Positions 3,772 to 53,432 of a stretch of DNA of 53,432 nt are shown here, piece after piece. Source of the DNA: an uncultured Clostridia bacterium (GTDB lineage: Bacteria; Bacillota; Clostridia; Christensenellales; CAG-138); assembly GCA_937894955.1 (NCBI GenBank), contig CALAXO010000070.1, positions 1 to 53,432 on the forward strand, in the 5' to 3' direction. Every line of letters starts with the position of its first letter. Within the stretch, counting starts at the first letter, position 1. The position numbers and the translations under genes are program-made. The notes below the pieces were generated by a model. It was given only the letters and a program-made list of their open reading frames with translations. It made no database searches and had not been told where the DNA came from.

Positions 3772-3827
3772 TCGGCACGGAGGCAGGCGCAATTAAAAAA
3801 GAGTTTGCTTCCGTGCCGATTTATTTT
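3772..3827 (+). terminator. Hairpin plus T-tract (probable terminator)
   Basis: Stem TCGGCACGGA (3772-3781) / TCCGTGCCGA (3810-3819) with a long loop, followed by TTTATTTT. Confidence 0.4.
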
Positions 3828-3905
3828 GAAAGATTCAGCGAAACAATTTACAAAACAACCCTCCGCAAAAAAGAAAGAAAGGAAGCTTTCGACACTGCGA
3901 AAGCG

Positions 3906-4809
3906 ATGATAACAAACATGAAAAACATGAAAAGGATTATTTCAGCGATTTTGATTTTGCTCCTTGCGGTTTCAATCTGCGCCTGCAGGGACTCTGCCGA
4001 AAAAAACGAAGACCCGATTGCAAAAAAGGTAAGCGAATACGCCGAGCTTATGAATAAGGACCTCTCCGAAAGCATTGAAACATTGCCGACGGGCTTGGAA
4101 TATGATGAAACAACAATTGAATGCTACAAAGCGGAGGGGCGCGACCTTGTTTATGTTAGGCCGTTCGATTCGTCTGTGGCTTCCATGTGGACGCAGGAGA
4201 TTTATGGTTATGCCCGGCGACAACATTCGCATGGAAGTGGCTTCCATGTGGACGCAGGAGATTTGGGAGGAATACGCTCGCACCGATGATCTGTACAACA
4301 ATACCCTGTTCAAGAACCTTACGGAAACCGTTGGGGACGACAGCGTAAGGCTGATTATCAGATTCATCGATAATGACGATAATGTGCTGTATGACCACAT
4401 AATTGACAAAAACTATAAATCCTCCGCCGGCACGATTACAATTATCGATGACACGGACGAAGCCGAATATGCGGTAAAAGCCGCCGCGAAATATTGCAGC
4501 GAGAATGCGGAGCGGTTGAATGCGGAATTAAGCATGTTTATGGAGGATGCAAAGTGGAACGGATGCCATGCCGAAGAGAGCGATATTGTGTTTGAATTCA
4601 AATACAACAAGGCCGTTGACAGTCAGGAGTTCGAAAGCAAATACAGTCAGGCCGATATCACAGAGGCACTTCAGCGATATGCGGACGAGATTGCATCCGA
4701 AACGGGAACACCGCTTGTGAGGCTTGTTTTCCGCTGCATTGACAGCGACGGAAACAACATTGCCGAGATTCATATCAAGGATCGAATGTTTGTTCATGAT
4801 GAGAATTAA
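3906..4809 (+). pseudogene. Lipoprotein gene split by a 61-bp insertion (frameshift)
   Basis: The N-terminal part (MITNMKNMKRIISAILILLLAVSICAC lipobox) is in frame 0 and stops at 4289. The rest is in frame +1 and runs to 4809. VASMWTQEI is encoded twice by the 28-bp repeat, and removing 61 bp gives one ORF. The exact start (3906, 3918 or 3927) is uncertain. Confidence 0.65.
4176..4264. repeat. Exact 28-bp direct repeat x2 flanking a unique 33-bp insert
   Basis: GTGGCTTCCATGTGGACGCAGGAGATTT occurs at 4176-4203 and 4237-4264. The insert ATGGTTATGCCCGGCGACAACATTCGCATGGAA is at 4204-4236. The flanking bases differ on both sides. Confidence 0.95.
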
Positions 4810-12051: not shown

Positions 12052-12468
12052 GGTATTTATCCTCCATGTGGAAAATTTGATTATATACGCACCGTTCGGC
12101 AGTAAATTCCGCGTATAAACTGCGTATATATTCATTATAACAAACTTTCCCGCAAAAGGGAAGAGGAAAAATGAATCGGAAGTGTTTTTTTCAGAAAAAC
12201 TTTGACGGTTTTTTTCGGAAACGCTGCCGGATTGCATAAGATGCACGCTTTAATTCAGCGGAGACACAAAGAAGCCGGAATGCAAGCACGCCGACTTCTT
12301 ATATGTTATAAGAGCGAAAAAACAAACTTCCGCCAAGCCCATAAGATGTCTTTATCGAGCACTTTCACAAGCAGAACCCCTCGACTGTGGTTATTCATCT
12401 TTTTTGCGAAGGGTTATGATCCCTGTTCCTGCGGTAATAACCGCAATACTGAGACCGATAAGGCCGAC

Positions 12469-12564
12469 TGTGCCGGTTCCGGGTACGGGAGTGGGTTCCG
12501 GCACATCGGCGAAGAAATTCTCTCGTACGCTTGTGCCGGTTCCGGGCACGGGAGTGGGTTCCGG
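12469..12564. repeat. In-frame 63-bp-period coding repeat (PEPTPVPGTGT linker)
   Basis: TGTGCCGGTTCCGGG(T/C)ACGGGAGTGGGTTCCGG occurs at 12469-12501 and 12532-12564. Confidence 0.9.
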
Positions 12565-13418
12565 AGTGTCTGTGGGAGGCACGGGTGTGGGTTCCGTCGG
12601 CTGATCGGGATCCGAAACTTCAAGATCGTTCGGCAGGAATATTGCCATATAATCACCGCCGTTGTAAAGCCCTCCGCAAAACTCGGTTTCCCCGGTATGA
12701 TGATCGAGAATATAGAGCCTGTTGGACAGGGAGTTGCACCGGTAAATGCACTGGCTGCAGTGGTCGAATTTCATTGTGTTTGCGAAACAGGTCGGAATGC
12801 CGGTATCGGCGATGATTGTGCATCTGCCTGTTTCGAGGTTGACGCTTGCCGATCTGCCTGTATCCGTCCGGTCATAGGAACCGGTATCGCTTGCAGGAGT
12901 CGTGTAGGCATTTCCTTCGGAATCGATTGTGAAACCCCATGCATTTTTGCCGAGGGCATTCATTTCGGCAATGGTTGTAACAGAACCGTCGCGGCGGTCC
13001 GCTTCGATAAGCCAAAAGTCGCTGCAGTAATGAGTCGCCATTGCGAACATGCGCTGCCGTTCGTAATCATAAGCCATGTCATAAACGAAGCAGCCGCCTG
13101 CTTCCTCGCCGGCAGGGAAGGTGAATTTTTCAAGCGGAGCATAATAATCCATAATGCCGAACCAACGCACAATTTCCTGACCGTTGGAAAAAAACAGGAA
13201 GACACAGTCCTGCTGTGACATAACTCGATAGCTGAATTCGAGAACCTGCCCTGCTTGCGCAAAAACGGTGGTGGAGACGTTTGATTTTGAGTTGTCCGAG
13301 TCGCGGTTTGATGATTTTGCTGCATCGATGTCAATGGACCGGTCGAGTGCATTGTCGGAATCTCCGTTAAAGAAAGTAAGCTTTCCTTCTTCAATGTTCA
13401 GTACTTCGTCAAGAGTCT

Positions 13419-13507
13419 GCGCATTCCGCGCGTCGGCGGGAAGCCCTCCAACAAACGGGAATTTCACAATACAGTTTAAGCGCATTCCGCGCGTCGGCGG
13501 GAAGCCC
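13419..13507. repeat. Exact 28-bp direct repeat x2 flanking a unique 33-bp insert
   Basis: GCGCATTCCGCGCGTCGGCGGGAAGCCC occurs at 13419-13446 and 13480-13507. The insert TCCAACAAACGGGAATTTCACAATACAGTTTAA is at 13447-13479. The flanking bases differ on both sides. Confidence 0.95.
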
Positions 13508-14019
13508 GTTTGTGTCCGTTAAAAACGGTGCAGCTCCTGCAAGCGGCGCAGCAGCGACCGAAAGCAGTGCCACGGCAGTTACGATCAGTGCAAAAAACTT
13601 TTTCATTTTTTTCCGTATTGTTTAATTTTTGCCCGTCAGCGGGCTGTGTTCCTGCGGCTGCGGCTCTTGTGCTGCCGTTCACCGCCGCATTCGGAACAGA
13701 AGCCCTTTCCCGCGCCGACCGGCAAAACGAAAAATATAAATTGCGGAGCAGGGGCTCAAAGAAAACTGCGCACCGGAGCAGGACGACGGCAGTTTTCGGC
13801 CGGAATAAAATACCTGCGGGCAAAACGCCGTTAAATACAATAAATATGCGGCGAACGCCGCTTTCTTCAAAATCCGGCTGAAAAATCCCGTTCGGCAGTT
13901 GAAAGAAACCGCGCAGGGTATTATAATATGGTATGAGTATGCGGAGCGGTACGGAGTTTTTGCGAACTTCGGATGATTTGCCTATGCGCCGCATCCGACA
14001 CGAAAGGAGAAAACGGAAA

Positions 14020-14901
14020 ATGAGGAGAAGTATGCTGTTTTTGCCCGGCAACACGCCGAACATGATCATAAACGGCGATGCGCTCGGTGCCGACAGTATC
14101 ATTCTGGATCTGGAAGATGCAGTCTCGCCGGATGAAAAGGATTCCGCAAGGCTGCTCGTTCGCAGTGCAATGAAGAATATGGGCTTTGTCGGCTGTGAGA
14201 TCACCGTCCGCATAAATTCAATAGATACCGATTACTGGAAGGACGATCTTGAGGCCGTGATTCCTCTTAAGCCTGACCTTATTATGCCCCCAAAGGCAAG
14301 CTGCGCGGAGGATATGCGCATTGTTGATGAATACATTGCGGGAATCGAACGCCGCTGCGGCATGGAAGTCGGAACGGTAAAACTTATTCCGCTTATCGAA
14401 ACGGCTCTCGGTGTTGAAAACGCATTCAATATAGCCTCGGCCTGCCCGCGCGTTGCGGCATTATTCCTCGGCGGTGAGGATCTGACGGCGGATTTGCGCT
14501 GCAAGCGCACAAAGCAGGGCAACGAGATAAACTATGCCCGCACGCGGCTCGTTTGCGCCGCCCGTGCGGCCGGGATCGATGTTTATGACACTCCGTTCAC
14601 GGATGTTAACGATGACGAGGGCATAGTGCGCGACGCGGAATATGCAAAAAGCCTCGGCTTCAGCGGCAAATCTGCGATTGCACCGCGCCATGTCCGCGTG
14701 ATAAACGAAGTGTTCAGCCCGTCCGCAAAGGATATTGAGTACGCAAAGCTTGTGTTCGAGGCGATTCGCATCGGCAAGGAACAGGGCAAAGGCGCAGTTT
14801 CGCTGCGCGGCAAAATGATAGACAAGCCCATTGTTGAGCGCGCAAGGCAAACGCTTGAAATCGCAAAACAACTCGGACTGGACGGAGGTGCCGAACAATG
14901 A
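14020..14901 (+). CDS. citE: Citrate lyase beta subunit (citryl-CoA lyase)
   Basis: AAAGGAG RBS before the ATG at 14020. RRSMLFLPGN...DSIILDLEDAV...LIPLIETA...FLGGEDLTADL is HpcH/CitE-typical. The stop overlaps the citF start (ATGA). Confidence 0.88.
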   Translation: MRRSMLFLPGNTPNMIINGDALGADSIILDLEDAVSPDEKDSARLLVRSAMKNMGFVGCEITVRINSIDTDYWKDDLEAVIPLKPDLIMPPKASCAEDMRIVDEYIAGIERRCGMEVGTVKLIPLIETALGVENAFNIASACPRVAALFLGGEDLTADLRCKRTKQGNEINYARTRLVCAARAAGIDVYDTPFTDVNDDEGIVRDAEYAKSLGFSGKSAIAPRHVRVINEVFSPSAKDIEYAKLVFEAIRIGKEQGKGAVSLRGKMIDKPIVERARQTLEIAKQLGLDGGAEQ

Positions 14902-16307
14902 AAACAAAGCTTACCGAATCTGTCAAACAGGCAATTGTCAACAGCGGACTCCGCAGCGGAATGACAATTTCGTTCCATCACCACCTGCGCAACGGCGACT
15001 ATGTTTTGAACATGGTGCTTGAGGCGATTGCGGAACTCGGCATCGGCGATCTGACGGTGAACGCAAGCTCACTCTTTGATGCGCACCGTCCGCTTAAGGA
15101 ACATATCAAAAACGGCGTTGCAACAACGCTTCAAACGGACTACATGTCACGGGAACTCGGAAGATTCATTTCTGCCGGCGGAATGAAAAACCCCGTTCAA
15201 TTCCGCACGCACGGCGGCAGACCCTGCGATATTGAAAACGGAAAAACTCCGATCGATGTTGCATTTATCGCCGCGCCTGCTTCGGATGCAATGGGCAATT
15301 GCACGGGCAAAATCGGCAAATCCGCCTGCGGCTCGCTGGGCTATGCAATTCCGGACGCAAAATGTGCAAAGCATGTTGTTGTTATCACCGACGAACTGCA
15401 TCCCTATCCTCTCATCGAATGGTCGATTCCCGAGACGGATGTTGATCAGGTCGTTGCGGTGGAGTCCATCGGTGACCCGAACGGAATCGTTTCCGGAACA
15501 ACAAAAATCACCCGCGATCCCGTCGGTTTGCTGATGGCAATGACGGCTGTGGACGTTATAAAAGCTTCCGGTTTGCTGAAGGAAGGCTTCTCGTTCCAGA
15601 CGGGCGCGGGCGGAGCATCCCTTGCGGCGGCAAAATATCTTAAGGATGTTATGCTTGCCGAAAAAATACGCGGCAGCTTCGGCCTCGGCGGCATCACGGG
15701 CTATATGGTGGATATGCTCAACGAGGGCTGCTTCGAATCCCTGCTGGATGTTCAGTGCTTCGATTTGAAGGCGGTTGAATCCATAAGGAGCAACCCGCGT
15801 CACCGTGAGATTTCCGCAACACATTATGCTTCCCCCGGTGCAAAAAGCGCGGTGACGGACAGCCTTGATGTTGTGATTCTCGGCGCAACGCAGATAGACA
15901 CGGATTTTAATATCAACGTGCATACGGATTCCAACGGCAGTATAATGGGCGGCTCGGGCGGACACAGCGATACTGCGGCGGGTGCAAAACTTGCAATGAT
16001 AATCGCGCCGCTTTCCCGTGCAAGGCTCCCCATCGTGACGGACAGGGTGAACTGCATATCCACTCCGGGCAGCACGATAGACGTGCTTGTCACTCAAAAG
16101 GGCGTTGCCGTGAACCCGAAAAACACGGAACTGCATGACAGACTGCGTGAGGCAGGCATAAAACTTGTTGACATAAACGAGCTCAAAGCCCTGGCGGAAC
16201 GCACGGGCGGCGTGCCGAAAAAGCCCGCTCTCGGCGACAGAATCGTTGCAAACGTTATCTATCGCGACGGAACGGTTATCGACACGATAAAGCAGGTCGC
16301 GGACTGA
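14898..16307 (+). CDS. citF: Citrate lyase alpha subunit (citrate CoA-transferase)
   Basis: 469 aa with ISFHHHLRNGDYVLNMV and other CitF-typical blocks. Translationally coupled to citE. Confidence 0.88.
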   Translation: MKTKLTESVKQAIVNSGLRSGMTISFHHHLRNGDYVLNMVLEAIAELGIGDLTVNASSLFDAHRPLKEHIKNGVATTLQTDYMSRELGRFISAGGMKNPVQFRTHGGRPCDIENGKTPIDVAFIAAPASDAMGNCTGKIGKSACGSLGYAIPDAKCAKHVVVITDELHPYPLIEWSIPETDVDQVVAVESIGDPNGIVSGTTKITRDPVGLLMAMTAVDVIKASGLLKEGFSFQTGAGGASLAAAKYLKDVMLAEKIRGSFGLGGITGYMVDMLNEGCFESLLDVQCFDLKAVESIRSNPRHREISATHYASPGAKSAVTDSLDVVILGATQIDTDFNINVHTDSNGSIMGGSGGHSDTAAGAKLAMIIAPLSRARLPIVTDRVNCISTPGSTIDVLVTQKGVAVNPKNTELHDRLREAGIKLVDINELKALAERTGGVPKKPALGDRIVANVIYRDGTVIDTIKQVAD

Positions 16308-16488
16308 GCGGAATTGCGGTCCGAAAACTGACTGAAAAGCTGCGGGCGAGCGGGGCGGCAAAACAAAACGGCCGCGTTCGCCTGCACAAACAGAATACAT
16401 AAATGCCGGTTCGAATCGTTCGAAATACAAAATGCGGAGATTTAAAACCCGGTGTGTTCAAAAAAATACAGCATAAAGGAGATAAACC

Positions 16489-17328
16489 ATGCGGGAAATT
16501 AACGCGCAGCTCATAACCGATAAGGTTGCGGAGCTTTGCATTGACGCCAATTGCAGCCTCCCCTGCGATATCAGAAAGCGCATTGAGGATGCAAGGGCAA
16601 ACGAACCGTGGGCAACGGCTCGGGGCATACTCGATAAGATTATCGAAAACTATAATATTGCGGATGAAAACCGCGCACCCATCTGCCAGGATACGGGCGT
16701 TGCCTGTGTGTTTTTGAAGATCGGGCAGGATGTCCATATCAACGGCGACCTTACGGAGGCCGTCAACGAGGGTGTTCGCCGCGGCTATCGCGACGGATAT
16801 CTGCGTAAATCCGTTGTTAAAGACCCTCTGCGCAGAGTCAACACGGGCGACAACACGCCCGCAATGCTCTATATCGAGCTTGTTCCGGGCGATAAAATCG
16901 AGCTTACCGTTGCACCGAAAGGCTTCGGCAGCGAGAACATGAGCCGCATTGCAATGCTCAAGCCCTCAGACGGCATTGAAGGCGTGAAGAATTTCATCCT
17001 TAAAACGGCGGAAGAGGCGGGCCCCAATCCGTGTCCCCCGATCGTTATCGGCGTCGGCATCGGCGGAACGTTCGACAAAGCAGCATTGCTTGCGAAAAAA
17101 GCATTGATGCGCAGCACCGACGAACGCAATGCGGATGAGTTTTATGCGGAGCTGGAAAATGAAATGCTTCAAAAGGTCAATGCTCTCGGCATCGGGCCGC
17201 AGGGCTTCGGCGGAAAAACCACTGCGCTTGCGGTCAATATCGAGGCTATGCCCACGCATATTGCAGGCTTGCCCGTTGCAGTGAACATCAATTGTCATGT
17301 TACAAGGCATAAGAGCGCGATAATCTGA
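16489..17328 (+). CDS. Fe-S hydro-lyase alpha subunit (class I fumarate hydratase / L-tartrate dehydratase N-terminal type)
   Basis: AAAGGAG RBS. PICQDTGVACVFLKIGQDV and IVIGVGIGGTFD are motifs typical of the class I fumarase/TtdA family. Confidence 0.88.
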   Translation: MREINAQLITDKVAELCIDANCSLPCDIRKRIEDARANEPWATARGILDKIIENYNIADENRAPICQDTGVACVFLKIGQDVHINGDLTEAVNEGVRRGYRDGYLRKSVVKDPLRRVNTGDNTPAMLYIELVPGDKIELTVAPKGFGSENMSRIAMLKPSDGIEGVKNFILKTAEEAGPNPCPPIVIGVGIGGTFDKAALLAKKALMRSTDERNADEFYAELENEMLQKVNALGIGPQGFGGKTTALAVNIEAMPTHIAGLPVAVNINCHVTRHKSAII

Positions 17329-17347
17329 GGTCGGGAGGAACATAAAA

Positions 17348-17920
17348 ATGGAAAGACATATCACCCTGCCGTTAACGCGTGAGGAAGCGCGTACGATTAA
17401 AAGCGGCGAACAGCTCCTGCTGTCCGGCGTTATATACACCGCGAGGGATGCGGCGCACAAACGGCTTTGCGAACTTGTTGAAAACGGAGAGCCGCTCCCC
17501 TTTGATATTAAAAACGCAACGATTTATTACGTCGGCCCCACTCCCGCAAAGCCCGGACAGGTCATAGGTTCGGCAGGCCCGACAACAAGCTACCGCATGG
17601 ATGCGTATTCGCCGACGCTTATCCGCGAGGGCGAAACGGGCATGATCGGCAAAGGCAAGCGGGATGCGGAGGTCATCGATGCAATGAAAAAATACGGTGC
17701 GGTCTATTTCGCCGCAATCGGAGGCGCAGGCGCGCTGCTTTCAAGCTGCATCAAAAAGGCGGAGATAATTGCATATGAAGATCTCGGCGCAGAGGCTCTC
17801 AGAAGGCTTGAGGTCGAAAACTTCCCCGTGGTTGCGGTTATAGACAGCGAGGGAAACAACCTTTACGAAAAAGGCCGCAGAGAGTATCTTGAGACCGTTG
17901 GTGCAAAAGGAAATGCATAA
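17348..17920 (+). CDS. Fe-S hydro-lyase beta subunit (class I fumarate hydratase / tartrate dehydratase C-terminal type)
   Basis: GGGAGG RBS. SGVIYTARDAAHKRL...YYVGPTPAKPG...GPTTSYRMD...MIGKGKR is typical of the beta subunit. Confidence 0.88.
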   Translation: MERHITLPLTREEARTIKSGEQLLLSGVIYTARDAAHKRLCELVENGEPLPFDIKNATIYYVGPTPAKPGQVIGSAGPTTSYRMDAYSPTLIREGETGMIGKGKRDAEVIDAMKKYGAVYFAAIGGAGALLSSCIKKAEIIAYEDLGAEALRRLEVENFPVVAVIDSEGNNLYEKGRREYLETVGAKGNA

Positions 17921-19899: not shown

Positions 19900-22764
19900 A
19901 TGAAATGCATAAACTGTGGTTCGGAAGATGTCATTTATCGAAAATTTCATCACATATGGGAATGTCAGGTTTGCGGCGAATCATTTGATTCCGATGAACG
20001 TGAAAAAATGACGGAGGAAATTAATGTTTTCTTCAGCTATGCGCATGACGATGAGAGTTTCGAAAACGGTGCAGTCGTTGTTGACAGGCTGAAACAGCTC
20101 ATTGAGGAAAAATCAGGCGGAAAAATCAAAATCTGGCTGGATACCTATTCCATTCCGAGGAATAAGGATTGGCGCGAACTCATAACAGGCGGCATTGTCG
20201 AAAGCGATCGTTTTGTGGGTTTCATGTCTCGAAAGGCGTTGCGCGACCCCGGTGTTTGCAGAGATGAACTCGGAATTGCCGTCGGCAGCCGCTGCGGGAT
20301 CATAAGCTGCGTTTTGCTTGAAGGCGAACGCACACTGAACCCTCCCGCAGAGTTTACCGAGCGGCAGTGGATCGACCTTTCGGATTGGAAAAAGAAGCGG
20401 GATGAAGGCGAAGCGGAATTCGAACGCTTTCTGAACGATGCTGCGGACGAATTGATTGGCATTTTGAAAGATCCGGAAACGCTGCGCTTCAATCACGAAG
20501 TGAAAAAACTGAAGGAATCCCTCGGAATTTCCGCCGTTGACGAAATGACCCGCATTGACGAATTGCTGAAGTTCAAAATGACGGGGCGCGGTTGGCTTGA
20601 GAGCAAAATCAACACTTGGCTGAACGACAAAAACGGTTCACGCGTTATGACCCTTTATGCCGACCCGGGCGCGGGCAAATCACTTTTTTCGGCACATTTC
20701 CAATTTGCAAACCCGAACGTCATCGCTGCACTTGCCTGCGACAGCCGAAGCGAGGAATACAGCCAAACGGACAAAATCACCGATCGCCTTGCCTACCTTA
20801 TCGCCCTTAGACTGCCGGACTATCGCCGGCAGCTGATGTATATTTTGACAGATAAAAGCACATTGACCAAAACGGGACACGACAGGTTTAACACCCTTAT
20901 CGCAACCCCGCTCAGCAGGGTTATAGACGGTGAACGCTCTGCAAAGCTCATCATCATTGACGGATTGGACGAAGCAAAGAGCGGTGCGCTCGCCGGGTTC
21001 ATCCGCAGCTATCATGACAAGTTGAAACCTTATATCCGCATACTTATCACCGCAAGACCCGAACGCATGCTCAGGCGGCAGCTGGCGCCTTCCGCCGAAT
21101 TCAGCTGCACGGAGCTGAATCTTGACGATTATGCCGAAATGAACGATGCCGATATCCGTCAATACTATGAAGAAAACCTCGAAGACCTGCTGAAGGACCG
21201 TCCCGGCCGCGATATTTTCATGAACCGCCTTGTTGAAGCAAGCAGCGGGATCTTCTACTATGCCTTCACGATCCTGCCGCAGCTGCGCGAGTCGCTCGAA
21301 AACGGGGAGCCGCTCGAAGGCATGACCTTCCCGAAGGGGCTCAACGCCTTGCTGCTCAAAACCTTCCTGCGAAAATTCGGGGAACCGGATGCTTCCGGCA
21401 GTGTCGAAAAATACAATGCGTTCGTGCGCGAGCCGCTTTCAATGGTCGCCGCCTCCCCCTATGCCCTCCCGCTCAAAACGCTGCAAAAGATGCAGGGCTG
21501 GACGAACGCCCGGCTGGAGGATTTTCTGCGCCCGCTGGAGACGATGCTCGACCTCAGCGGCGGCTTCATCCGCCTTTTCCACAAATCCTTCACGGATTGG
21601 CTGAACGACGGCGAGGCTTCCGCTGCGTTCTATGCGCCGCAGGAGGATGGCATACGGAGCCTTGCCGCCGCCTGCTTCAAAGCCTTTGAACAGGGCGCGG
21701 ACGAAATGGATACATATGAGCTTGCAAATGCTTCACGCCTGCTGCGCAGTGCGGGAATGAAGAAGGAATACGAACAGCTCACGGATTCTTCGGAATACAC
21801 CTCCGCACTGAAAAAACTCGCAAAAGCCTGTGCGGACGACCGGCAGCATGAAAGAGCGGCGGAGCTCTGTCTTGAATATGCGCGAATATTTAAGGAGAAA
21901 TGCGAAAAAAGCGGTGATCCGGAGCAGGCGCACGAAGCCGTTTGGGGCAATATTTATGCCTGTGATGCGCTGGGGGACATGCTTGATTATTCTGCGGCGG
22001 AGGTCGCTGCAAATGCAGCGCTGAAAATTGCGGAAGAGTTTGCGGAAAAGTACCCGGATGACCCGCAAATGCAGCGCGGCCTGAGCATTTCGTATAATAA
22101 ACTCGGCGATATTGCGAAAGCCTTGAACGATTATAATGCGGCGGAAGGGTATTATGCAAAGGCGCTTGCAATCAGCAAAAGGCTTGCGGAAAAGTACCCG
22201 GATGACCCGCAAATGCAGCGCGACCTGAGCAATTCGTATAACAGACTCGGCGATATTGCGGAAGCACGGAATGATTATAACGCTGCGGAAGTGTATTATT
22301 CAAAGGATCTTGAAATCAGGGAAAGGCTTGCGGAAAACTTTCCGGGAGTTCCGATGCTGAAGGACGATCTTGCCGTTTCTCTTTTCAAGTGCGGGACATG
22401 CAGCGCGGACGGAAAGCTTTCGCCCGAACAAAAAGCGATGCTGCGCAGCGCTGCCGCGATTTGGGAGGAGCTTTACAAACAAACGGGATATGTATTGTAT
22501 GCGGAAAGAAGAGAGCTTGCTCAAAACCGATTAAATCAATGCAGTGAAGAAGGAGGAGAGAATACGGAACAGAAGAAACCCGGATTTTTTGCACGGCTGC
22601 GTGAGGAAATCAGAGCGTATCGCAAGATGAGAAGGCTGATCAGATTGCTTAAAAGCACAGATAAAGCCGTCAAAGAAATGGAAAAAACGCGGCGTGAGAC
22701 GGAGAGAATCCTTGCAAAATCGGATGAGTTGAAGCCGTGCGGCGAAACGGACGACGAAGAATAA
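19900..22764 (+). CDS. Zinc-ribbon - TIR - STAND (NACHT/NB-ARC-like P-loop NTPase) - TPR protein, antiphage-type sensor/effector architecture
   Basis: CINCGS...CQVCGE zinc ribbon. TIR block VFFSYAHDD...WLDTYSIPRNKDW...VCRDELGIAV. Walker A LYADPGAGKS and Walker B KLIIIDGLDEA. C-terminal 48-aa TPR units (AEKYPDDPQMQR.LS.SYN.LGDIA...YNAAE.YY). Confidence 0.85.
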   Translation: MKCINCGSEDVIYRKFHHIWECQVCGESFDSDEREKMTEEINVFFSYAHDDESFENGAVVVDRLKQLIEEKSGGKIKIWLDTYSIPRNKDWRELITGGIVESDRFVGFMSRKALRDPGVCRDELGIAVGSRCGIISCVLLEGERTLNPPAEFTERQWIDLSDWKKKRDEGEAEFERFLNDAADELIGILKDPETLRFNHEVKKLKESLGISAVDEMTRIDELLKFKMTGRGWLESKINTWLNDKNGSRVMTLYADPGAGKSLFSAHFQFANPNVIAALACDSRSEEYSQTDKITDRLAYLIALRLPDYRRQLMYILTDKSTLTKTGHDRFNTLIATPLSRVIDGERSAKLIIIDGLDEAKSGALAGFIRSYHDKLKPYIRILITARPERMLRRQLAPSAEFSCTELNLDDYAEMNDADIRQYYEENLEDLLKDRPGRDIFMNRLVEASSGIFYYAFTILPQLRESLENGEPLEGMTFPKGLNALLLKTFLRKFGEPDASGSVEKYNAFVREPLSMVAASPYALPLKTLQKMQGWTNARLEDFLRPLETMLDLSGGFIRLFHKSFTDWLNDGEASAAFYAPQEDGIRSLAAACFKAFEQGADEMDTYELANASRLLRSAGMKKEYEQLTDSSEYTSALKKLAKACADDRQHERAAELCLEYARIFKEKCEKSGDPEQAHEAVWGNIYACDALGDMLDYSAAEVAANAALKIAEEFAEKYPDDPQMQRGLSISYNKLGDIAKALNDYNAAEGYYAKALAISKRLAEKYPDDPQMQRDLSNSYNRLGDIAEARNDYNAAEVYYSKDLEIRERLAENFPGVPMLKDDLAVSLFKCGTCSADGKLSPEQKAMLRSAAAIWEELYKQTGYVLYAERRELAQNRLNQCSEEGGENTEQKKPGFFARLREEIRAYRKMRRLIRLLKSTDKAVKEMEKTRRETERILAKSDELKPCGETDDEE

Positions 22765-45441: not shown

Positions 45442-46551
45442 TTATTTTTCGTCCTTTGAATCGTCACACTCGGAGAACACAGCCCTGAGCCTGTCAAGAA
45501 TATCGATTACATATTCTTTGTTGAGCGTGTAATAGGTTTTGGCGGTGCGCAGATCGCATTCCACAAGGTTTGCCGCAACAAGGCGCGCCATATGATGGGA
45601 AATGGTGGTGGGGTGCAGCGCGGTCTTTTCGGAAAGCTCCTGTCCGTAGGCGGGGCTTTCGCGAAGCAGGTTGATAATGTCCAAACGGCTCGGCTCGGAA
45701 AGGGCTTTGAACAGCATTGCGAGTTCCTCGGGGGACGAGATGATGTCACGAACGCTTGAAACAAGGTCATAACCGATGCCCATGAGAACCATGCCGTTGT
45801 CCTTTCCCGTATTGTCCTGATACTGCTTGATGAAAGCAGCAATATGGTCATACATAAAGATGGAGCAGTAAGGAGTCATTTCGATATTATCGGGAAGTCC
45901 CATTCCGTAGCAGTCATTAATTTTTTTGAGGACGCCGCTGCCTTCGGGATAGCGTTTGGAAAATGCGGAGCAGATTGCCGCAACGTTTGTGCGCTCACGG
46001 CGCATTGCATTGAGGAATCCGTCAACAAGCAGGGATACGCGTTCGGAATAGCTCTTGTATTTGAACAGGAGCTTCATTACGCCGAGTCGGGACTGTTCAT
46101 CAAGGCCGGTGTTTTCAAGCCGCTCATAGAAGGCATCGGAAGTGATCTCATCGGTCACGGTTGCGGTGCCGGGGGATTCGAGAACGCTCAGAATGTCAAC
46201 CATGATGTCTCCATCGGTTTTCGAATAAATATATTCAGTGAAATTATCCGGATCAACACCGTCGCGAATCGCAGGGAAGACCATCATGTATAGAATGCTG
46301 TTGCTGCAGGCGAAGGGTGTGGGACTGCTGCAAACAGGAGTCAACAGCTGACTGAGCTCACGCTTACCCACACGAACAAGGTAGTCAAGGCGATCCTGAA
46401 GGTCTGCAACCGGAGAGAGAAGCCTTAAGAATTCGTTGGTTTTTGAAGGAAATCTTGTGCACAATCTGTCGAGTTCAATGCGAACAAGACGGCCTTCGGC
46501 CCTGCGGTGGAAGTATTGAAGAGCTTCAAAAAGAGGATTGATGTTTATCAT
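45442..46551 (-). CDS. ArsR/SmtB-family HTH regulator with a ~270-aa N-terminal extension
   Basis: The C-terminal LSEPSRLDIINLLRESPAYGQELSEKTALHPTTISHHMARLVAANLV is an ArsR wHTH. The start is ATG 46551 or TTG 46563. Confidence 0.7.
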   Translation of the reverse strand: MININPLFEALQYFHRRAEGRLVRIELDRLCTRFPSKTNEFLRLLSPVADLQDRLDYLVRVGKRELSQLLTPVCSSPTPFACSNSILYMMVFPAIRDGVDPDNFTEYIYSKTDGDIMVDILSVLESPGTATVTDEITSDAFYERLENTGLDEQSRLGVMKLLFKYKSYSERVSLLVDGFLNAMRRERTNVAAICSAFSKRYPEGSGVLKKINDCYGMGLPDNIEMTPYCSIFMYDHIAAFIKQYQDNTGKDNGMVLMGIGYDLVSSVRDIISSPEELAMLFKALSEPSRLDIINLLRESPAYGQELSEKTALHPTTISHHMARLVAANLVECDLRTAKTYYTLNKEYVIDILDRLRAVFSECDDSKDEK

Positions 46552-46635
46552 ACGGGAGACCAACCTTTCGTATTTTTGTTTTATACTCTTTTATTTTAAT
46601 ACATTTAAAAAATATGTCAAGTACAGAATTTCCTG

Positions 46636-46665
46636 TTGACAAGGTATTGTTGGGCATTGTACAAT
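46636..46665 (+). promoter_or_regulatory. Sigma-A promoter (TTGACA, 18 bp, TACAAT) for the S8 protease
   Basis: TTGACA at 46636-46641 and TACAAT at 46660-46665. Confidence 0.5.
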
Positions 46666-46712
46666 GCATAGGATACCAATCCTACAACTGCGGTTGGAGA
46701 AGGATGATAAAC

Positions 46713-49700
46713 ATGAAACTCAAACGTTTGGCGGCACTTGTGCTCGCGGTTATGATGACATTGACCGCGGCTTCCGTGACGGGGCTTTCGAAGCTTGCGG
46801 CGGAAGGAACACAAAAACCCGAAAAGTCCGTTGTTGATGCGACGGGTGCAACATGGTACCACGCCGATGCAGGCGAGGAACTGCGTTTTGATGACGACTC
46901 AAGCTATTGCTTTGAAAGCGAAAGCTGGATTATGCGTCAGAAGAGCGGAAGCACGATTGACGAAGCTGTTTTCGACGGCATCACGCCCGACAATGTTCGG
47001 ACATTGACCAATGAAAACGGCGAGACCTACACCGTTTCAATGTATTCCCAGGCAACGGTTGTTGCAGAACTCAACCGCATGCTCGGCAAGGAAACGAAAA
47101 AACCCGAACGAACCCTTGTTGAAAGGTACAAAATTGATGATGAAGGCATGATTGACGTCATTATCAAGCTTTCCGGCGATGCCGTGCTCGAAAACGGCGG
47201 CGCGGTTCTCGGCGAAGGACTTACCAAACAGCAGTCCGCCGCACGCGAGAAGCTTGCAGCGGAACACGAAATCATTAAAAAGCGCATTGAATGTGCCGCT
47301 TCGGCAATCTCTTTTGAATATGATTTCACCCTGCTCTGCAACGGCTTTGCGGCAAGCGTACCTTTCAACGAGGTTTCGCGCATTGCGGCGGTTGCGGGCG
47401 TTGAAAGCGTTGAATACATGCCCGTGTTTGAAATTCCCACGGAAAGCTATGAGATCGTTCGCCCCGACGACACAAAGATGACGATTGCGAACGATGTTAT
47501 TGAATCCGGCTATGCATGGGATCTCGGCATTGACGGCAGCGGCATGGTTATTGCAATTATCGATACAGGCATCGATACCGATAACGAGTGCTTTGCTCCC
47601 GGACTTGAAACAGTCAAACTGACTCAGGAGGATATCAGCCGCACAATTGCCGAAAATCCGGATATGAACATGCTTGCGCTCCGTCCCGGAACGACTGCGG
47701 AACAGGTTTATATCAACGATAAGATTCCGTTCGCATTTGACTATGCGGATAAGGACTGCAATGTTAACCACGGCGGACAGGCTTCCGCACACGGCACGCA
47801 TGTTGCCGGCATCGCAGCGGGGCAGGCGGTCGAAAGCGCGGGCACAAGCTTCGGCCTGACATCTCTCGGTGTTGCACCCAAGGCACAGATCCTGCCGCTC
47901 AAGGTGTTCAGCGACCGCGATGCTTCCGCAACTCTCGGCAGCGTTGCGGCCGCAATGGAGGATGCGCTCGTTCTCGGTGCGGATGCGATAAACCTCAGCC
48001 TCGGCGCTGTCGGGGGCCCCGTGTATTACGAGGGCTATACGGAAATTTTTGATGCGGCACTTGCCAACGGCATCAATGTTGTTGCTTCCGCGGGCAACTC
48101 CGCTTCTTCCACTTACCACAGCCTTTGGGAAGCGGATCTCGGCCTTACGGATAATCCCGATATCGGCATGGTCGGTATGCCCGGAAGCTTCAATTCCGTT
48201 CTGACGGTTGCAAGTCTTAATAACCCCGAATACTTCGTTGCGATTCAGACTCAGGATGCGCTGCTGTTCGACGATGCATATCCCGAATACGGCGGTTCAT
48301 GGAAATCCCGCTACGACGACAAGGCGGATTATGAGTACAAAGTTGCAACCCGCATCGGCGGACACAGCTATGAGTACAGCATTTTCCATACTGCCATCGA
48401 CAATGCGGATCTTTCCGATGTTTCCGGCAAGCTTCTGTTTGTTGATTATAACTCCGAACTGACGATCGATGAACATGCGGCATTTGCACGCGAAGCGGGT
48501 GCGGCTGCACTGTTTATCTTTGACTCTTCAAGAAAAACGACCTTTGTTGACACGACGAGAGAGGATTGGACCTATCCCGTTGCAGCATACAAATATGATT
48601 CTCTGACCAAAGCGCTTGAACCGTCTCACCCGGCGACGATTCATATTAACCCCTATTGGGATATTGACGATCAGGGCGGTTACATGTCCTCATTCTCAAG
48701 CTGGGGCACAACCGGCGGACTGACCATCAAGCCCGAGATAACGGCTGTCGGCGGCAATGTTTTCTCCGCATATAACGGCAGCGGCGCATACGCACTTTCA
48801 AGCGGCACGTCAATGTCCGCTCCGATGACGGCGGGCAGCGCATTGCTTGTTCGTCAGTATCTGATGAACAATTTCGATATTCCTGCGGCGGAACTTCCGG
48901 AAGTTGTGAACAATCTGCTCATGAGCGCCGCAGCTCCGGTGCTCAATCCCGACGGACTTACCTATTCCCCCCGTTATCAGGGCGCGGGCTTTGAGAACAT
49001 CCGTGCGGCAATGACCGCCGGCGCCTACATCACCACCGAATGCGGCAGGGCAAAGCTTGAACTCGGCGATGACCCGCAGAAAACAGGTGTTTACAACCTT
49101 AATTTCACCGTTGTGAACATGACCGATTCGGACAAGACCTATACTGTTGATGCTTCTGTTCAGACGGAAAGTGCGGAGACGGGCCGGATCAATGCGGACG
49201 GCACCCGCCGTTATCTCATGACTCAGACTCCGCACATTCTGAATTCCGAAATTGCGGGCGACGGCATGATCACGGTTCCCGCAGGCGGTTCAACCGAAGT
49301 TTCCGTAACGATTACGCTCACCGAAGCGGATATCGCTTATATCGAAAATTACTTCCCGAACGGCATATATGTTGAAGGTTTCGTGACTCTCACCGCAGGT
49401 GAGGAGAACGGAGTTGATCTTTCCGCTCCGTTCCTTGCATTCTACGGTGACTGGCTTGCATTGCCCGCAATCGAGCAGAGCAGCTACTATGATTTCACCG
49501 AAATTGAAACAGGTGAATGCGATGCAACCCATGTTGTTAACGGCGTATATACCTATGATGCAAATTACGATGAATATATCGGTCTCGGAACAAGCATGGC
49601 TTGGCCCAACAACAGCGTTTACTCCACGGAAGAACTCGGCACGATGCGCTATGTTGCAAACCGCAACGCGATCTCTCCCAACGGGGACAGTATCCGTGAC

Positions 49701-51242
49701 GCAATCGATGCGATTGTAATCGGTTTGAGTCGCAACGTTGAAAATTTCTGTTACAGTGTTGTGGATGCGGAAACCGGTGTTGAATACTACCGCAAGGATC
49801 TCGGTTTTGTACCGAAGACGTACTACAACGATAATGCGGGTCAGGCACTTTACGTCGGAGCCTATGATAACGAGGAGTTTGACTGGGATTATACCGACCT
49901 TGAAGGCAACCCCCTGCCCAACAACACAAAGCTTACTGTTGCATTCTGTGCGGAATTGGCTTATAATGGCAGGGAACGCACCGAAAAGTGGGAGATGCCG
50001 CTCACGATCGACACCGAAAGCCCCATCAAGAATGTTTCCATGGTCAGCTATGAATGGGAATATGAAGAATGGAGCGATGAGGAAGACGACTATGTCGGCA
50101 CGGGAGAGTACTACCACGTTCCCACTATCGTCATTGACTACAGCGAGAATCAGTATATGGACTGGAATTGCGGCAGGTCTATGAGCGTCGGCGGCGGCAG
50201 CAGCAGCAAAGTGTTCCACAATGCCGTTGAACCCGGCACCGTGCGCGGAACGGCAAAGCTCGGCCTCGGTCCCGATGACTTGAGCGACCTCAACAGTTTC
50301 CTCTTCCTTGAATGCATGATAAGCGACTATGCGGGCAACGGCCTGTTTATTCGCATCGAGCGCGATGATCGCCCCGAAATCTACAACTCCGGCGAACTTT
50401 CCGACAGCGTTGTAAATCTCCGCCCCGGCGAAACTTACACCGTCAGCGCATATTCCGATATCTGGGATTTGTTCACGGATTTCGACTTTGCATGGAGCGT
50501 TGAGGATGAGTCCGTTGCATCGGTTACCCAGAACGAGGGTGACATTTTCTCCGCAACGATAACCGCAAACGAAGTCGGCAGCACCACGCTGAAACTTACG
50601 AACGGTTTCCTTAAAGAGATGACCTGCACGATTAACGTTGTTGCCGAAAGCTACGATATCACCGCCTCCGCAGGGATCGGCGGAACTATTACACCATACG
50701 GCACAACCACTGTTGATTCCCGCAGTTCTGCATCGTATACGATTACTCCGAATGAGGGTTGGCATGTTGCGGATATTATTGTTGACGGCGAATCAGTCGG
50801 TGCCGCAAACGAATACACCTTTGACTGCGTGATTGCAAATCACACGATCGAGGCCGTGTTCGCAAGCGATAACTACTTTAATGTTTATTTCGTTGACTGG
50901 GACGGCACAACGATCAGTGTTCAGACAGTCGGCTACGGCATGGATGCGGAAGCGCCTGCCGACCCCGTACGTGAAGGCTATGATTTCATCGGCTGGAGCG
51001 GATGCTTCACCGGAATCACGGCAAACACCGTCCTTGTTGCGCAATATGAACCCGCAAGCGGAATCCTTGCGGGTGATATTGACGGCGACGGCATTGTGAC
51101 CGCCGCAGATGCTCTGCTCGTTATGCGTTATTGCAGCGACCTTGCGGAGCTGACCCCCGAACAGCTTGAGGCTGCCGACTTTAACGGCAGCGGCGTTGTT
51201 GAACTTATCGACGCGCTGCTTATCCTCCGCGCTGTTGTCTGA
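46713..51242 (+). CDS. Cell-envelope-type S8 subtilisin-like serine protease with PA domain, Listeria-Bacteroides/InlB-B-type repeats and C-terminal type I dockerin
   Basis: Signal peptide MKLKRLAALVLAVMMTLTAASV. Triad contexts VIAIIDTGID, HGTHVAGIAAG and SGTSMSAPMTAG. PA-like LLFVDYNSE...AGAAALFIFD. YFVDWDGTTISVQTVGYGMDAEAPADPVREGYDFIGWSG. Dockerin GDIDGDGIVTAADALLVMRY...ADFNGSGVVELIDALLILR. Confidence 0.9.
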   Translation: MKLKRLAALVLAVMMTLTAASVTGLSKLAAEGTQKPEKSVVDATGATWYHADAGEELRFDDDSSYCFESESWIMRQKSGSTIDEAVFDGITPDNVRTLTNENGETYTVSMYSQATVVAELNRMLGKETKKPERTLVERYKIDDEGMIDVIIKLSGDAVLENGGAVLGEGLTKQQSAAREKLAAEHEIIKKRIECAASAISFEYDFTLLCNGFAASVPFNEVSRIAAVAGVESVEYMPVFEIPTESYEIVRPDDTKMTIANDVIESGYAWDLGIDGSGMVIAIIDTGIDTDNECFAPGLETVKLTQEDISRTIAENPDMNMLALRPGTTAEQVYINDKIPFAFDYADKDCNVNHGGQASAHGTHVAGIAAGQAVESAGTSFGLTSLGVAPKAQILPLKVFSDRDASATLGSVAAAMEDALVLGADAINLSLGAVGGPVYYEGYTEIFDAALANGINVVASAGNSASSTYHSLWEADLGLTDNPDIGMVGMPGSFNSVLTVASLNNPEYFVAIQTQDALLFDDAYPEYGGSWKSRYDDKADYEYKVATRIGGHSYEYSIFHTAIDNADLSDVSGKLLFVDYNSELTIDEHAAFAREAGAAALFIFDSSRKTTFVDTTREDWTYPVAAYKYDSLTKALEPSHPATIHINPYWDIDDQGGYMSSFSSWGTTGGLTIKPEITAVGGNVFSAYNGSGAYALSSGTSMSAPMTAGSALLVRQYLMNNFDIPAAELPEVVNNLLMSAAAPVLNPDGLTYSPRYQGAGFENIRAAMTAGAYITTECGRAKLELGDDPQKTGVYNLNFTVVNMTDSDKTYTVDASVQTESAETGRINADGTRRYLMTQTPHILNSEIAGDGMITVPAGGSTEVSVTITLTEADIAYIENYFPNGIYVEGFVTLTAGEENGVDLSAPFLAFYGDWLALPAIEQSSYYDFTEIETGECDATHVVNGVYTYDANYDEYIGLGTSMAWPNNSVYSTEELGTMRYVANRNAISPNGDSIRDAIDAIVIGLSRNVENFCYSVVDAETGVEYYRKDLGFVPKTYYNDNAGQALYVGAYDNEEFDWDYTDLEGNPLPNNTKLTVAFCAELAYNGRERTEKWEMPLTIDTESPIKNVSMVSYEWEYEEWSDEEDDYVGTGEYYHVPTIVIDYSENQYMDWNCGRSMSVGGGSSSKVFHNAVEPGTVRGTAKLGLGPDDLSDLNSFLFLECMISDYAGNGLFIRIERDDRPEIYNSGELSDSVVNLRPGETYTVSAYSDIWDLFTDFDFAWSVEDESVASVTQNEGDIFSATITANEVGSTTLKLTNGFLKEMTCTINVVAESYDITASAGIGGTITPYGTTTVDSRSSASYTITPNEGWHVADIIVDGESVGAANEYTFDCVIANHTIEAVFASDNYFNVYFVDWDGTTISVQTVGYGMDAEAPADPVREGYDFIGWSGCFTGITANTVLVAQYEPASGILAGDIDGDGIVTAADALLVMRYCSDLAELTPEQLEAADFNGSGVVELIDALLILRAVV

Positions 51243-51719: not shown

Positions 51720-53246
51720 TCAAACAGCGGGTCTGTCGTCAGTTGTGTAGCTCACGAACACGCCTTTTCCGGTGTTGACGGTGACGGCCGGGATGGGCAG
51801 TGCCGGTTCGTTGGGAATGTTCATTTCCCCCACGCAGTTGTAGTGAATGCGAAGCCGCTGTACCCATTCGCCGTCGATCTTCTCGGCATTGTAGACCTCG
51901 ATTTTCTCCACCAGTTCGTTGAGCATCCGCGGCGTGAGCTTTCTGGCGCGGGTGTATTTGCGGACGATGGACACGAACATATCCGTTGAGGCTGCGCGGC
52001 TGCTCTGCTTCTCTGTCTCGGAACGGAGCTTTTTTATTTTCTCCGAAAGCTCCTTCTGTTCCTCCTCATAGCGGCGGGACATCTTCGCAAAGCGGTCGTC
52101 GCTGAGCTTGCCGGAAACATTGTCCTCATAGATGCGCTCGAACAGGCCGTCCGGTTCATCGTCGCGGGCAAGGAGTGATTTCAGCTCCTTCTCCTTCAGT
52201 CTGCGCTCCGTTTCCTCCGCCTGCCGGGAGTGACCGATCACTTCCTTGAGAAAATCGTCCTCGTAAAGGCCGGCATACTTCGTCAGACGACGGATTTCGC
52301 CGAGAACGACCTGCTCCAGAAAGTCCACTCTGACATAGTGCGTGGAACCGCAGGTACCGCGATTGCCCTTGTAGTTGGAACAGTTGAAATACTTGATTTC
52401 CGGGTTCCCCTGATTGAAATGAAAGTGAAGGTTGCTCCCGCAGTCGGAACAGACCGGAAGCCCGGAAAACGTGCTCCTTTCGCCGTCCTTCGCTTGACGC
52501 TTTCTCATCCTGCCGCGCTTTTGCTGCACCTGTTCAAAGACGGTCCGCTCAATGATCGACTCATGCACATCCTTGAAAATCGCCCAATTCTCACGGTCAT
52601 TCTCCAGACGCTTCTTGTTCTTGTATGACTTGGAATAGGTCTTGAAGTTGAGAATGTCCCCGCAATACTCCTGCACTGAAAGCATCTTTATGACGCTGGA
52701 GCTGTTCCAATGGGTGGGCGGCAGATCCTTGACCTTGCCGAGACGATTGATCCCCTTGGAGTGCCGGTAGGCGCGCGGGGTCAGGACGCCGTCCTCTTCA
52801 AGCTTCGCGGCAATCTGCTCCGTTCCGACCCCTTCCGGCGTCATGCGGTAAATCCGCCGCACGACCTGCGCCGCTTCCTCGTCCACAATCCAGCGTTTGG
52901 GGTTCTCCGGGTCTTTGATGTACCCGTAAGCAGGCTGCCCCATGGGTTCGCCGGCATTTCCCTTGATCTTGTTGCTGATGCGCCGCTTCTTGCTGATGTC
53001 GCGCGCATACCATTCGTTGAAAAGATTACGGATGGGAGCCAGCTCGTTCTCGCCTTCGTCGGTGTCGATGTTGTCCGAAACAGCGATCAGACGAATGTCG
53101 TGATTGGGGAAGAACTCCTCGGTCAGTCTGCCGACTTCGATGTAGCTAAGACCCAGGCGGCTGAGATCTTTTACAATCAATGTTCCGACATTGCCCGCTT
53201 CAATTTCCTTAATCAACGCTTGAAAGCCGGGGCAATTGAAATTCAC
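51720..53246 (-). CDS. Large serine recombinase (TnpX/TndX-like), N-terminally truncated: catalytic-Ser segment absent, probable pseudogene
   Basis: The resolvase-domain remainder begins at ...DDGFSGVNFNCPGFQALIKEIEAGNVGTLIVKDLSRLG. Recombinase and zinc-ribbon regions follow (CSDCGSNLHF...FNCSNYKGNRGTCGSTHY), then a coiled coil. An in-frame stop lies only 27 codons upstream of the GTG. No RBS. Confidence 0.7.
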   Translation of the reverse strand: MNFNCPGFQALIKEIEAGNVGTLIVKDLSRLGLSYIEVGRLTEEFFPNHDIRLIAVSDNIDTDEGENELAPIRNLFNEWYARDISKKRRISNKIKGNAGEPMGQPAYGYIKDPENPKRWIVDEEAAQVVRRIYRMTPEGVGTEQIAAKLEEDGVLTPRAYRHSKGINRLGKVKDLPPTHWNSSSVIKMLSVQEYCGDILNFKTYSKSYKNKKRLENDRENWAIFKDVHESIIERTVFEQVQQKRGRMRKRQAKDGERSTFSGLPVCSDCGSNLHFHFNQGNPEIKYFNCSNYKGNRGTCGSTHYVRVDFLEQVVLGEIRRLTKYAGLYEDDFLKEVIGHSRQAEETERRLKEKELKSLLARDDEPDGLFERIYEDNVSGKLSDDRFAKMSRRYEEEQKELSEKIKKLRSETEKQSSRAASTDMFVSIVRKYTRARKLTPRMLNELVEKIEVYNAEKIDGEWVQRLRIHYNCVGEMNIPNEPALPIPAVTVNTGKGVFVSYTTDDRPAV

Positions 53247-53292
53247 ACCCGAAAAACCATCGTCGGCTGCTGTACAAAAAGGACTAATAAAT

Positions 53293-53432
53293 TTACGCCG
53301 GACAGGATTCCCGGCGTAGGGTCTCCATCAGAGCCTTGATCTCATCGGCGAGGTTCAGCCGGATGTCCATGCGCCCATCCGGGTAGATGGTGACGGATTG
53401 CAGCAGCTCGGCAGAAATCTCTTTGGTCAGCG
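53293..53432 (-). CDS. 3' end of another ORF, probably the C-terminus of a second large serine recombinase (5' part outside window)
   Basis: My translation is ...LTKEISAELLQSVTIYPDGRMDIRLNLADEIKALMETLRRESCPA*, with stop TAA at 53295-53293. This resembles the usual ...I.V..DGRI.I.F.. tail of these recombinases. Confidence 0.4.
   Translation of the reverse strand, partial: LTKEISAELLQSVTIYPDGRMDIRLNLADEIKALMETLRRESCPA

Follow-up and report, generated by a model that had tools for sequence, protein, structure and literature searches.

Two genes in the 53,432-bp contig analysed here (the whole stretch, referred to below as the window) were found to be interrupted by short units of the same layout, in which a 28-bp sequence is present twice with a 33-bp insert between the copies (Table 1). 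The first unit lies in a lipoprotein gene (locus 1) and the second in a gene for a secreted or surface protein (locus 2), and the products of both genes carry signal peptides. At locus 1, the 28-mer GTGGCTTCCATGTGGACGCAGGAGATTT occurs as two exact copies. The base preceding them is T and A, and the base following them is A and G, respectively; the flanking bases are thus unlike on both sides, and the repeat is exactly 28 bp long. No third copy of this 28-mer was present in the window when up to three mismatches were tolerated, and none is expected from shuffled sequences. The 33-bp insert of locus 1 occurs only once in the window. At locus 2, the 28-mer GCGCATTCCGCGCGTCGGCGGGAAGCCC is present as two exact copies around a 33-bp insert. 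The 28/33/28 geometry is common to both loci, and their sequences are unrelated.

Table 1. Features of the two insertion loci and of the genes that hold them (positions in the window)
Feature	Position	Strand	Remarks
Lipoprotein gene, broken by a +61 frameshift; intact in nine related strains (312 aa by gene call, faint DUF4854)	3813..4809	+	
GTCT that directly precedes target site 1 (leader-like, -4 to -1)	4172..4175	+	Same four bases precede site 2
Locus 1, 28-bp target-site duplication, copy 1; native coding sequence, VASMWTQEI	4176..4203	+	Exact repeat; single copy in relatives
33-bp insert 1, spacer-like, ATGGTTATGCCCGGCGACAACATTCGCATGGAA; EF-Tu (tuf) fragment, MVMPGDNIRME	4204..4236	+	Unique in window; tuf 33/33
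Locus 1, 28-bp target-site duplication, copy 2	4237..4264	+	Exact repeat; single copy in relatives
Secreted/surface-protein gene (signal peptide, PT-rich linker, C-terminal anchor), broken by a +61 frameshift	12391..13606	-	Intact homologues of 573-628 aa with a Big_2 domain
GTCT directly upstream of target site 2	13415..13418	+	From comparison of both sites
Locus 2, 28-bp target-site duplication, copy 1; native coding sequence of the minus-strand gene	13419..13446	+	Single orthologous 28-mer in three relatives
33-bp insert 2, spacer-like, TCCAACAAACGGGAATTTCACAATACAGTTTAA, 33% GC	13447..13479	+	No source match in sequence searches
Locus 2, 28-bp target-site duplication, copy 2	13480..13507	+	Exact repeat; single copy in relatives

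When exact repeats were scanned over all offsets from 13 to 600 in the window, these two loci were the only ones at offset 61. A tolerant scan of the window (at least 20 of 28 matches, offsets 55-70) gave no further or decayed units, and 19 of 20 shuffled sequences gave none either. Across the Clostridia loci fetched for comparison (1.47 Mb), every 28-bp repeat at offset 61 was an orthologue of one of these two loci. These results bear out the original prediction in several respects. It had described the duplication at locus 1 as exactly 28 bp long and its 33-mer as unique in the window, had pointed to a second locus at 13419-13507 with the identical geometry, had argued from it for an enzymatic ruler and against chance, and had proposed a scan for X(28)-N(33)-X(28) structures. 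The scan, run on the window and on the 1.47 Mb of control DNA, returned both loci and their orthologues only, and chance does not explain two identical 28/33/28 geometries. A tandem duplication, also dismissed in the prediction, was rejected because the 33-mers are found neither in the flanks nor elsewhere in the window.

Empty sites, independent assemblies and origin of the inserts

Deletion of 61 bp in silico restored a single long open reading frame at each locus, as had been predicted for the lipoprotein gene, and the same uninterrupted sequence was found in related strains for both loci. The empty site of locus 1 was present in nine contigs from strains approximately 95% identical to the window. 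Each contig has one 28-mer and an intact gene, and in two of the nine the 28-mer is identical to that of the window. The empty site of locus 2 was present in three related contigs, in each of which the orthologous 28-mer occurs once and exactly 61 bp of the window are missing, and the intact homologues are collinear across the insertion site. These empty sites with a single 28-mer show that each event duplicated 28 bp of the target and inserted 33 bp, a gain of 61 bp. Because 61 bp is 3n+1, the reading frame is shifted at each locus, and both insertions are predicted to inactivate their gene. The surface-protein gene also has a 198-aa in-frame deletion at approximately 13120-13125 compared to the 573-628-aa homologues; this deletion takes out the Big_2 domain region, and its junction reads ...APLEKF/TFPAG....

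Both insertions were present in independent MEGAHIT, SPAdes and Logan assemblies. The insertion at locus 2 was found in five samples or more, from strains whose divergence reaches 0.34%, and has been inherited across them: ERZ26858319 (99.66% identical to the window over 13.8 kb), ERZ27300200 (100%), SRR29834387 (99.93%), ERZ26858461 (product found by exact look-up) and ERR8981346, whose contig begins 2 nt inside the insert. The ERR8981346 Logan contig thus starts directly before the second 28-mer, and the break could be a graph branch between filled and empty alleles or an effect of low coverage. The 28+33+28 structure of locus 1 was also present in an ERZ27300200 contig 99.99% identical to the window (ENA). 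The product that marks the locus 1 insertion turned up in a single further sample, this same ERZ27300200, which holds the window's own strain, and look-ups of the genes neighbouring locus 1 in sibling strains returned only that sample. Since identical junctions occur in several independent assemblies, the insertions are not artefacts, a possibility that the original prediction had named among its refutations and that is contradicted by at least five samples and different assemblers for locus 2 and by a second sample for locus 1. As the product of locus 1 was found in ERZ27300200 only, the two insertions look to have arisen at separate times, with locus 2 apparently the older.

The 33-mer of locus 1 had been proposed for comparison with genome, phage and metagenome collections, and an exact match was found. 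Insert 1 matches the EF-Tu gene (tuf) at 33 of 33 positions in Clostridium sp. CAG:138 and in a Hadza Clostridia MAG, which were the sole matches among representative genomes. In these donor genes the fragment is preceded by GTTGAA and followed by ATCGAA or ATAACC. The peptide encoded by insert 1 is typical of EF-Tu in a large clade of gut Clostridia. It is present in most of the more than 100 EF-Tu variants that are 96-100% identical to that of CAG:138, variants among which the host's own tuf is not distinguishable. Judged by this match, insert 1 was copied from another stretch of DNA and not templated from adjacent sequence. The GC content of insert 2 is 33%, compared to 48.5% for the window. 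Exact scans of the genome, viral and metagenome collections found no source of insert 2, BLAST searches of phage and plasmid sequences gave matches at chance level only, and three wobble-masked viral scans and an approximate search of the fetched loci gave no match. The two inserts are unrelated to each other (10 of 33 positions identical) and have no terminal inverted repeats, and neither 33-mer had a further copy in the window or among 2.1 Mb of loci.

Source of the insertions and alternative explanations

Type I-E systems have an A-rich 5′ PAM (AAG in E. coli), the last base of which is carried into the spacer. In the E. coli K-12 CRISPR-I array (NC_000913.3), an invariant 28-mer and 33 bp recur at a period of 61 bp and every spacer starts with G, and Shmakov et al. 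(2014; PMC4027179) described the insertion of 33-bp fragments whose first base is PAM-derived. The 28 bp duplicated and 33 bp inserted at both loci equal the type I-E acquisition unit, in agreement with the predicted reading of the 61 bp. An 'AA' at the 3′ end of both inserts was considered as an acquisition-affecting motif and rejected, since the motif was not reproduced in PMC4027179 and the coincidence is not significant. The first base is A in insert 1 and T in insert 2; neither starts with G, and the duplication therefore shows its true 28 bp and not an apparent 29 bp. The PAM-side evidence is that of a single protospacer, the one of insert 1, which reads GTTGAA/ATGG... in both donor genomes (the slash marks its border) and has GAA before it.

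These findings indicate, with a probability that we put at about 0.8, that both insertions were made by a Cas1-Cas2-type integrase through complete two-ended off-target integration with a ruler of 28 bp for the repeat and 33 bp for the spacer, the type I-E unit. We know of no other process that duplicates a fixed target of approximately 28 bp around a fixed, unrelated insert of approximately 33 bp. The integrase would have captured a 33-bp fragment, in one case from the tuf gene, and would have mistaken a chromosomal sequence for a leader-repeat junction (GTCT/G..TTCC... 28 bp/G). Strand transfer at staggered positions, 28 bp apart on opposite strands, followed by gap repair, would leave the 28 bp duplicated on either side of the insert. 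Each of the two insertions lengthens a coding sequence by 61 bp, puts it out of frame and thereby inactivates a secreted or surface-protein gene, and the two appear to have arisen separately in one lineage. The original prediction of ectopic Cas1-Cas2 integration thus gains support from the empty sites, the fixed lengths of 28 and 33 bp, the tuf-derived insert 1, the likeness of the two sites and the independent assemblies.

The two sites before insertion, read on the plus strand, are alike at 18 of 33 positions (GTCT/G.G..TTCC..G.G…GC.GGA…/G, slashes marking the borders of the 28 bp). Among the matching positions are GTCT at -4 to -1, G at +1, TTCC at +6 to +9 and G at +29. A likeness this close was reached by no more than 3.5e-4 of the 33-mers in the window (p approximately 3.5e-4), a value for the two sites compared with each other. 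If a single integrase chose both sites, its targets would be expected to resemble each other in this way, including the four upstream bases and the downstream base, and the shared motif may reflect the leader-repeat preference of that integrase. Compared to type I-E repeats, the 28-mers are identical at 13-16 of 28 positions, which serves as a lead only, and the orientation of site 2 is ambiguous.

Attempts to guess the cognate repeat gave no usable candidate. A search of IMG/VR for the nine-position shared motif occurring three times at a period of 61 returned 64 I-E-like arrays; these had been picked by the shared motif, so that their likeness to the sites does not count as independent support. 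Those that have TTCC at positions 6-9 were 29/32 arrays beside Cas12f/TnpB-like ORFs, and a metagenome scan for the core of the 29/32 arrays gave 13 unrelated short arrays. This lead was dropped. As an observation in its own right, these searches brought up a group of related short arrays whose period is 61 bp (29-nt repeat, 32-nt spacer) and whose conserved core is YTCCGCGCGCGCGAGGG; they are present in IMG/VR and on metagenome contigs. The GC content of the contigs that hold them ranges from 36% to 71%, many of the spacers are palindromic, and two of the viral arrays adjoin Cas12f/TnpB-like ORFs.

The 28-mers themselves are the genes' own coding sequence, differ between the loci and are single-copy in relatives. 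They gave no match to the Rfam CRISPR-DR families, and their fold z-scores were -0.15 and -0.81, compared to -4.24 for the E. coli repeat. Being native coding sequence that is specific to each locus, matches no CRISPR-DR family and folds no better than shuffled sequence, the 28-mers are not evolved CRISPR repeats. No cas1, cas2 or CRISPR array was found with Pfam, PADLOC, NCBIfam and TRF on the 53,432-bp sequence, which is a complete MAG contig. On these grounds (repeats that are native and differ between the loci, no hairpin, no cas genes on the contig), a genuine CRISPR array was rejected as an explanation. With cas genes absent from the contig, it is from the footprint that we infer the enzyme and the I-E subtype, and confidence that a resident type I-E system was the source is somewhat below that for a Cas1-Cas2-type integrase.

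The same chemistry could have been carried out by Cas1-Cas2 of another subtype, or by a Cas1-Cas2 whose mobile element has meanwhile disappeared (for instance I-F, IV-associated or an adaptation module that has no array), in place of a resident type I-E system. This is unlikely. The absence of cas genes from the contig would agree with it, as would the viral contigs on which 61-bp-period arrays also lie beside Cas12f/TnpB-like genes and the island with a serine recombinase in the window, but the 28-bp duplications and 33-bp inserts fit the I-E unit at both loci, whereas the units added by other subtypes are 28+32 (I-F), 36+30 (II-A) and about 32+34 (I-C).

A non-CRISPR mobile element or integrase that makes 28-bp target duplications, with the 33-mers as its cargo or footprints, is highly improbable. 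The GTCT before both sites could be the preference of any recombinase, and the integrating enzyme is known here from its footprint alone. However, the inserts have no sequence in common beyond the 10 of 33 positions given above and lack terminal inverted repeats, insert 1 is a plain fragment of tuf, and the window and the 2.1 Mb of loci hold no other copies of the inserts. The footprint of a transposon, MITE or IS was rejected for the same lack of inverted termini and extra copies and because a 28-bp duplication is too long; to our knowledge, no transposon family makes duplications of 28 bp.

A replication or repair accident, in which template switching or templated insertion copied 33 bp and duplicated the local sequence, is scarcely credible: insert 1 does come from a chromosomal gene, but such accidents would have had to yield exactly 28 and 33 bp on two separate occasions and at unrelated sites, and the ends of the inserts share no microhomology with the flanks. 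An artefact (of assembly or by chimera formation) and a decayed genuine CRISPR array, for which nothing more than the repeat-spacer-repeat appearance speaks, are effectively refuted by the recurrence of identical junctions across at least five samples and different assembly tools and by 28-mers that are native coding sequence, occur once in relatives, are unlike between loci, match no Rfam CRISPR-DR family and show no selected hairpin.

Relation to known systems and significance

Off-target integration by Cas1-Cas2, the reading preferred here, has precedents. Nivala, Shipman and Church (2018; Nat Microbiol 3:310), as described in papers that cite their work, reported that off-target integration produces neo-CRISPR units in E. 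coli over-expressing type I-E Cas1-Cas2, and the original prediction had likewise mentioned off-target integration in E. coli. As summarised in those papers, their events share with the two loci a spacer-sized insert, a repeat-length duplication of non-CRISPR chromosomal DNA and the I-E geometry, and can likewise fall inside genes. Unlike the summarised experiments, the events here are natural, belong to an uncultured gut Clostridia lineage with no over-expression known, are fixed and inherited across samples, comprise two independent events 9 kb apart, and have an integrase that is deduced from its footprint. A clear demonstration of such misplaced insertion has so far come from engineered E. 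coli only; in a paper citing Nivala et al. (2018), the evidence for natural off-target integration is described as no more than circumstantial, for two other species.

Canonical type I-E adaptation at the leader-proximal repeat of E. coli K-12 CRISPR-I resembles the two loci in adding 28+33=61 bp and in having G at repeat position 1 and at target position 29. It differs from them in that the targets here are coding sequence without a leader, an array or a stable hairpin, and the inserts lack a PAM-derived initial G. The Cas1-Cas2 of P. furiosus integrates in vitro at off-target sites that share features of the repeat (PMC6698737). Just as those sites resemble the repeat borders, the two sites here resemble each other, and the analogy supports reading the shared motif as a probable integrase preference; unlike the present loci, the P. 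furiosus work concerned a different subtype with a ruler of about 30 bp, in vitro on plasmids. Ectopic acquisition within arrays has been described for the type II-A systems of S. thermophilus and S. mutans (PMC7999890 and others), and 'ectopic' acquisition otherwise referred to events inside arrays in the open literature searched. Those events are similar in that integration takes place away from the leader-proximal repeat, but they use genuine internal array repeats, whereas ordinary genes were used here.

The two loci are a natural instance of a phenomenon known from experiments. The evidence is unusually clean for natural events, with two independent insertions, alleles that have and that lack the insert, a spacer taken from a chromosomal gene, inactivated genes and persistence across samples. 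It would mean that CRISPR adaptation carries a mutational cost in the wild, that single repeat-spacer-repeat seeds of possible new arrays arise and persist, and that, for an uncultured organism, the lengths of duplication and insert in a footprint are enough to show what ruler its adaptation system uses. A scan for X28-N33-X28 structures combined with confirmation of empty sites could measure the frequency of such events across genomes.

A further reading, doubtful but worth stating, is that an adaptation module, still present in the lineage or present until recently, integrates time and again at chromosomal pseudo-repeats (GTCT/G..TTCC...) and samples host-type DNA such as tuf. This module might be a Cas1-Cas2 without a proper array, either lost or never had. 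If so, it would be a natural, ongoing source of insertional knock-outs and of seeds of new CRISPR arrays. The stray units, not being processed into crRNA, would keep the self-derived spacers that selection purges from real arrays, and would form an uncensored record of naive acquisition in the wild.

Genomic surroundings

A lineage-specific cluster of citE, citF and fumarate hydratase genes (13933-17920) adjoins locus 2; in related strains, genes for an HTH_5 regulator and for a large Big_2/dockerin protein stand in its place. Large genes at 19900-41124 form an island that looks like a conflict or defence locus. It codes for a TIR-NPHP3_N(STAND)-TPR protein, an 885-aa protein with a weak VWA match, a 1159-aa Tubulin_2 protein, proteins of 763 and 280 aa without a family match, a 1492-aa transglutaminase-like protein and, with a match to PADLOC IetA, a double AAA+ protein joined to an M41 peptidase. 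The TPR part of the TIR-STAND gene contains a 144-bp tandem repeat (22040-22337; 2.1 copies, 88% identical).

A 373-aa regulator (45442-46563, minus strand) matched PADLOC Csa3 through its C-terminal winged-helix domain only (E = 2e-14). Its equivalent in relatives is annotated HTH_5, and it does not speak for a CRISPR system. A dockerin-bearing S8 subtilase is encoded at 46614-51242. In the region 51720-53432, the ORF of a serine recombinase is missing roughly the first 50 residues of the resolvase domain, and beyond it, at approximately 53300-53432 on the minus strand, lies the apparent C-terminal end of another ORF. This end of the contig may be the remnant of a mobile element.
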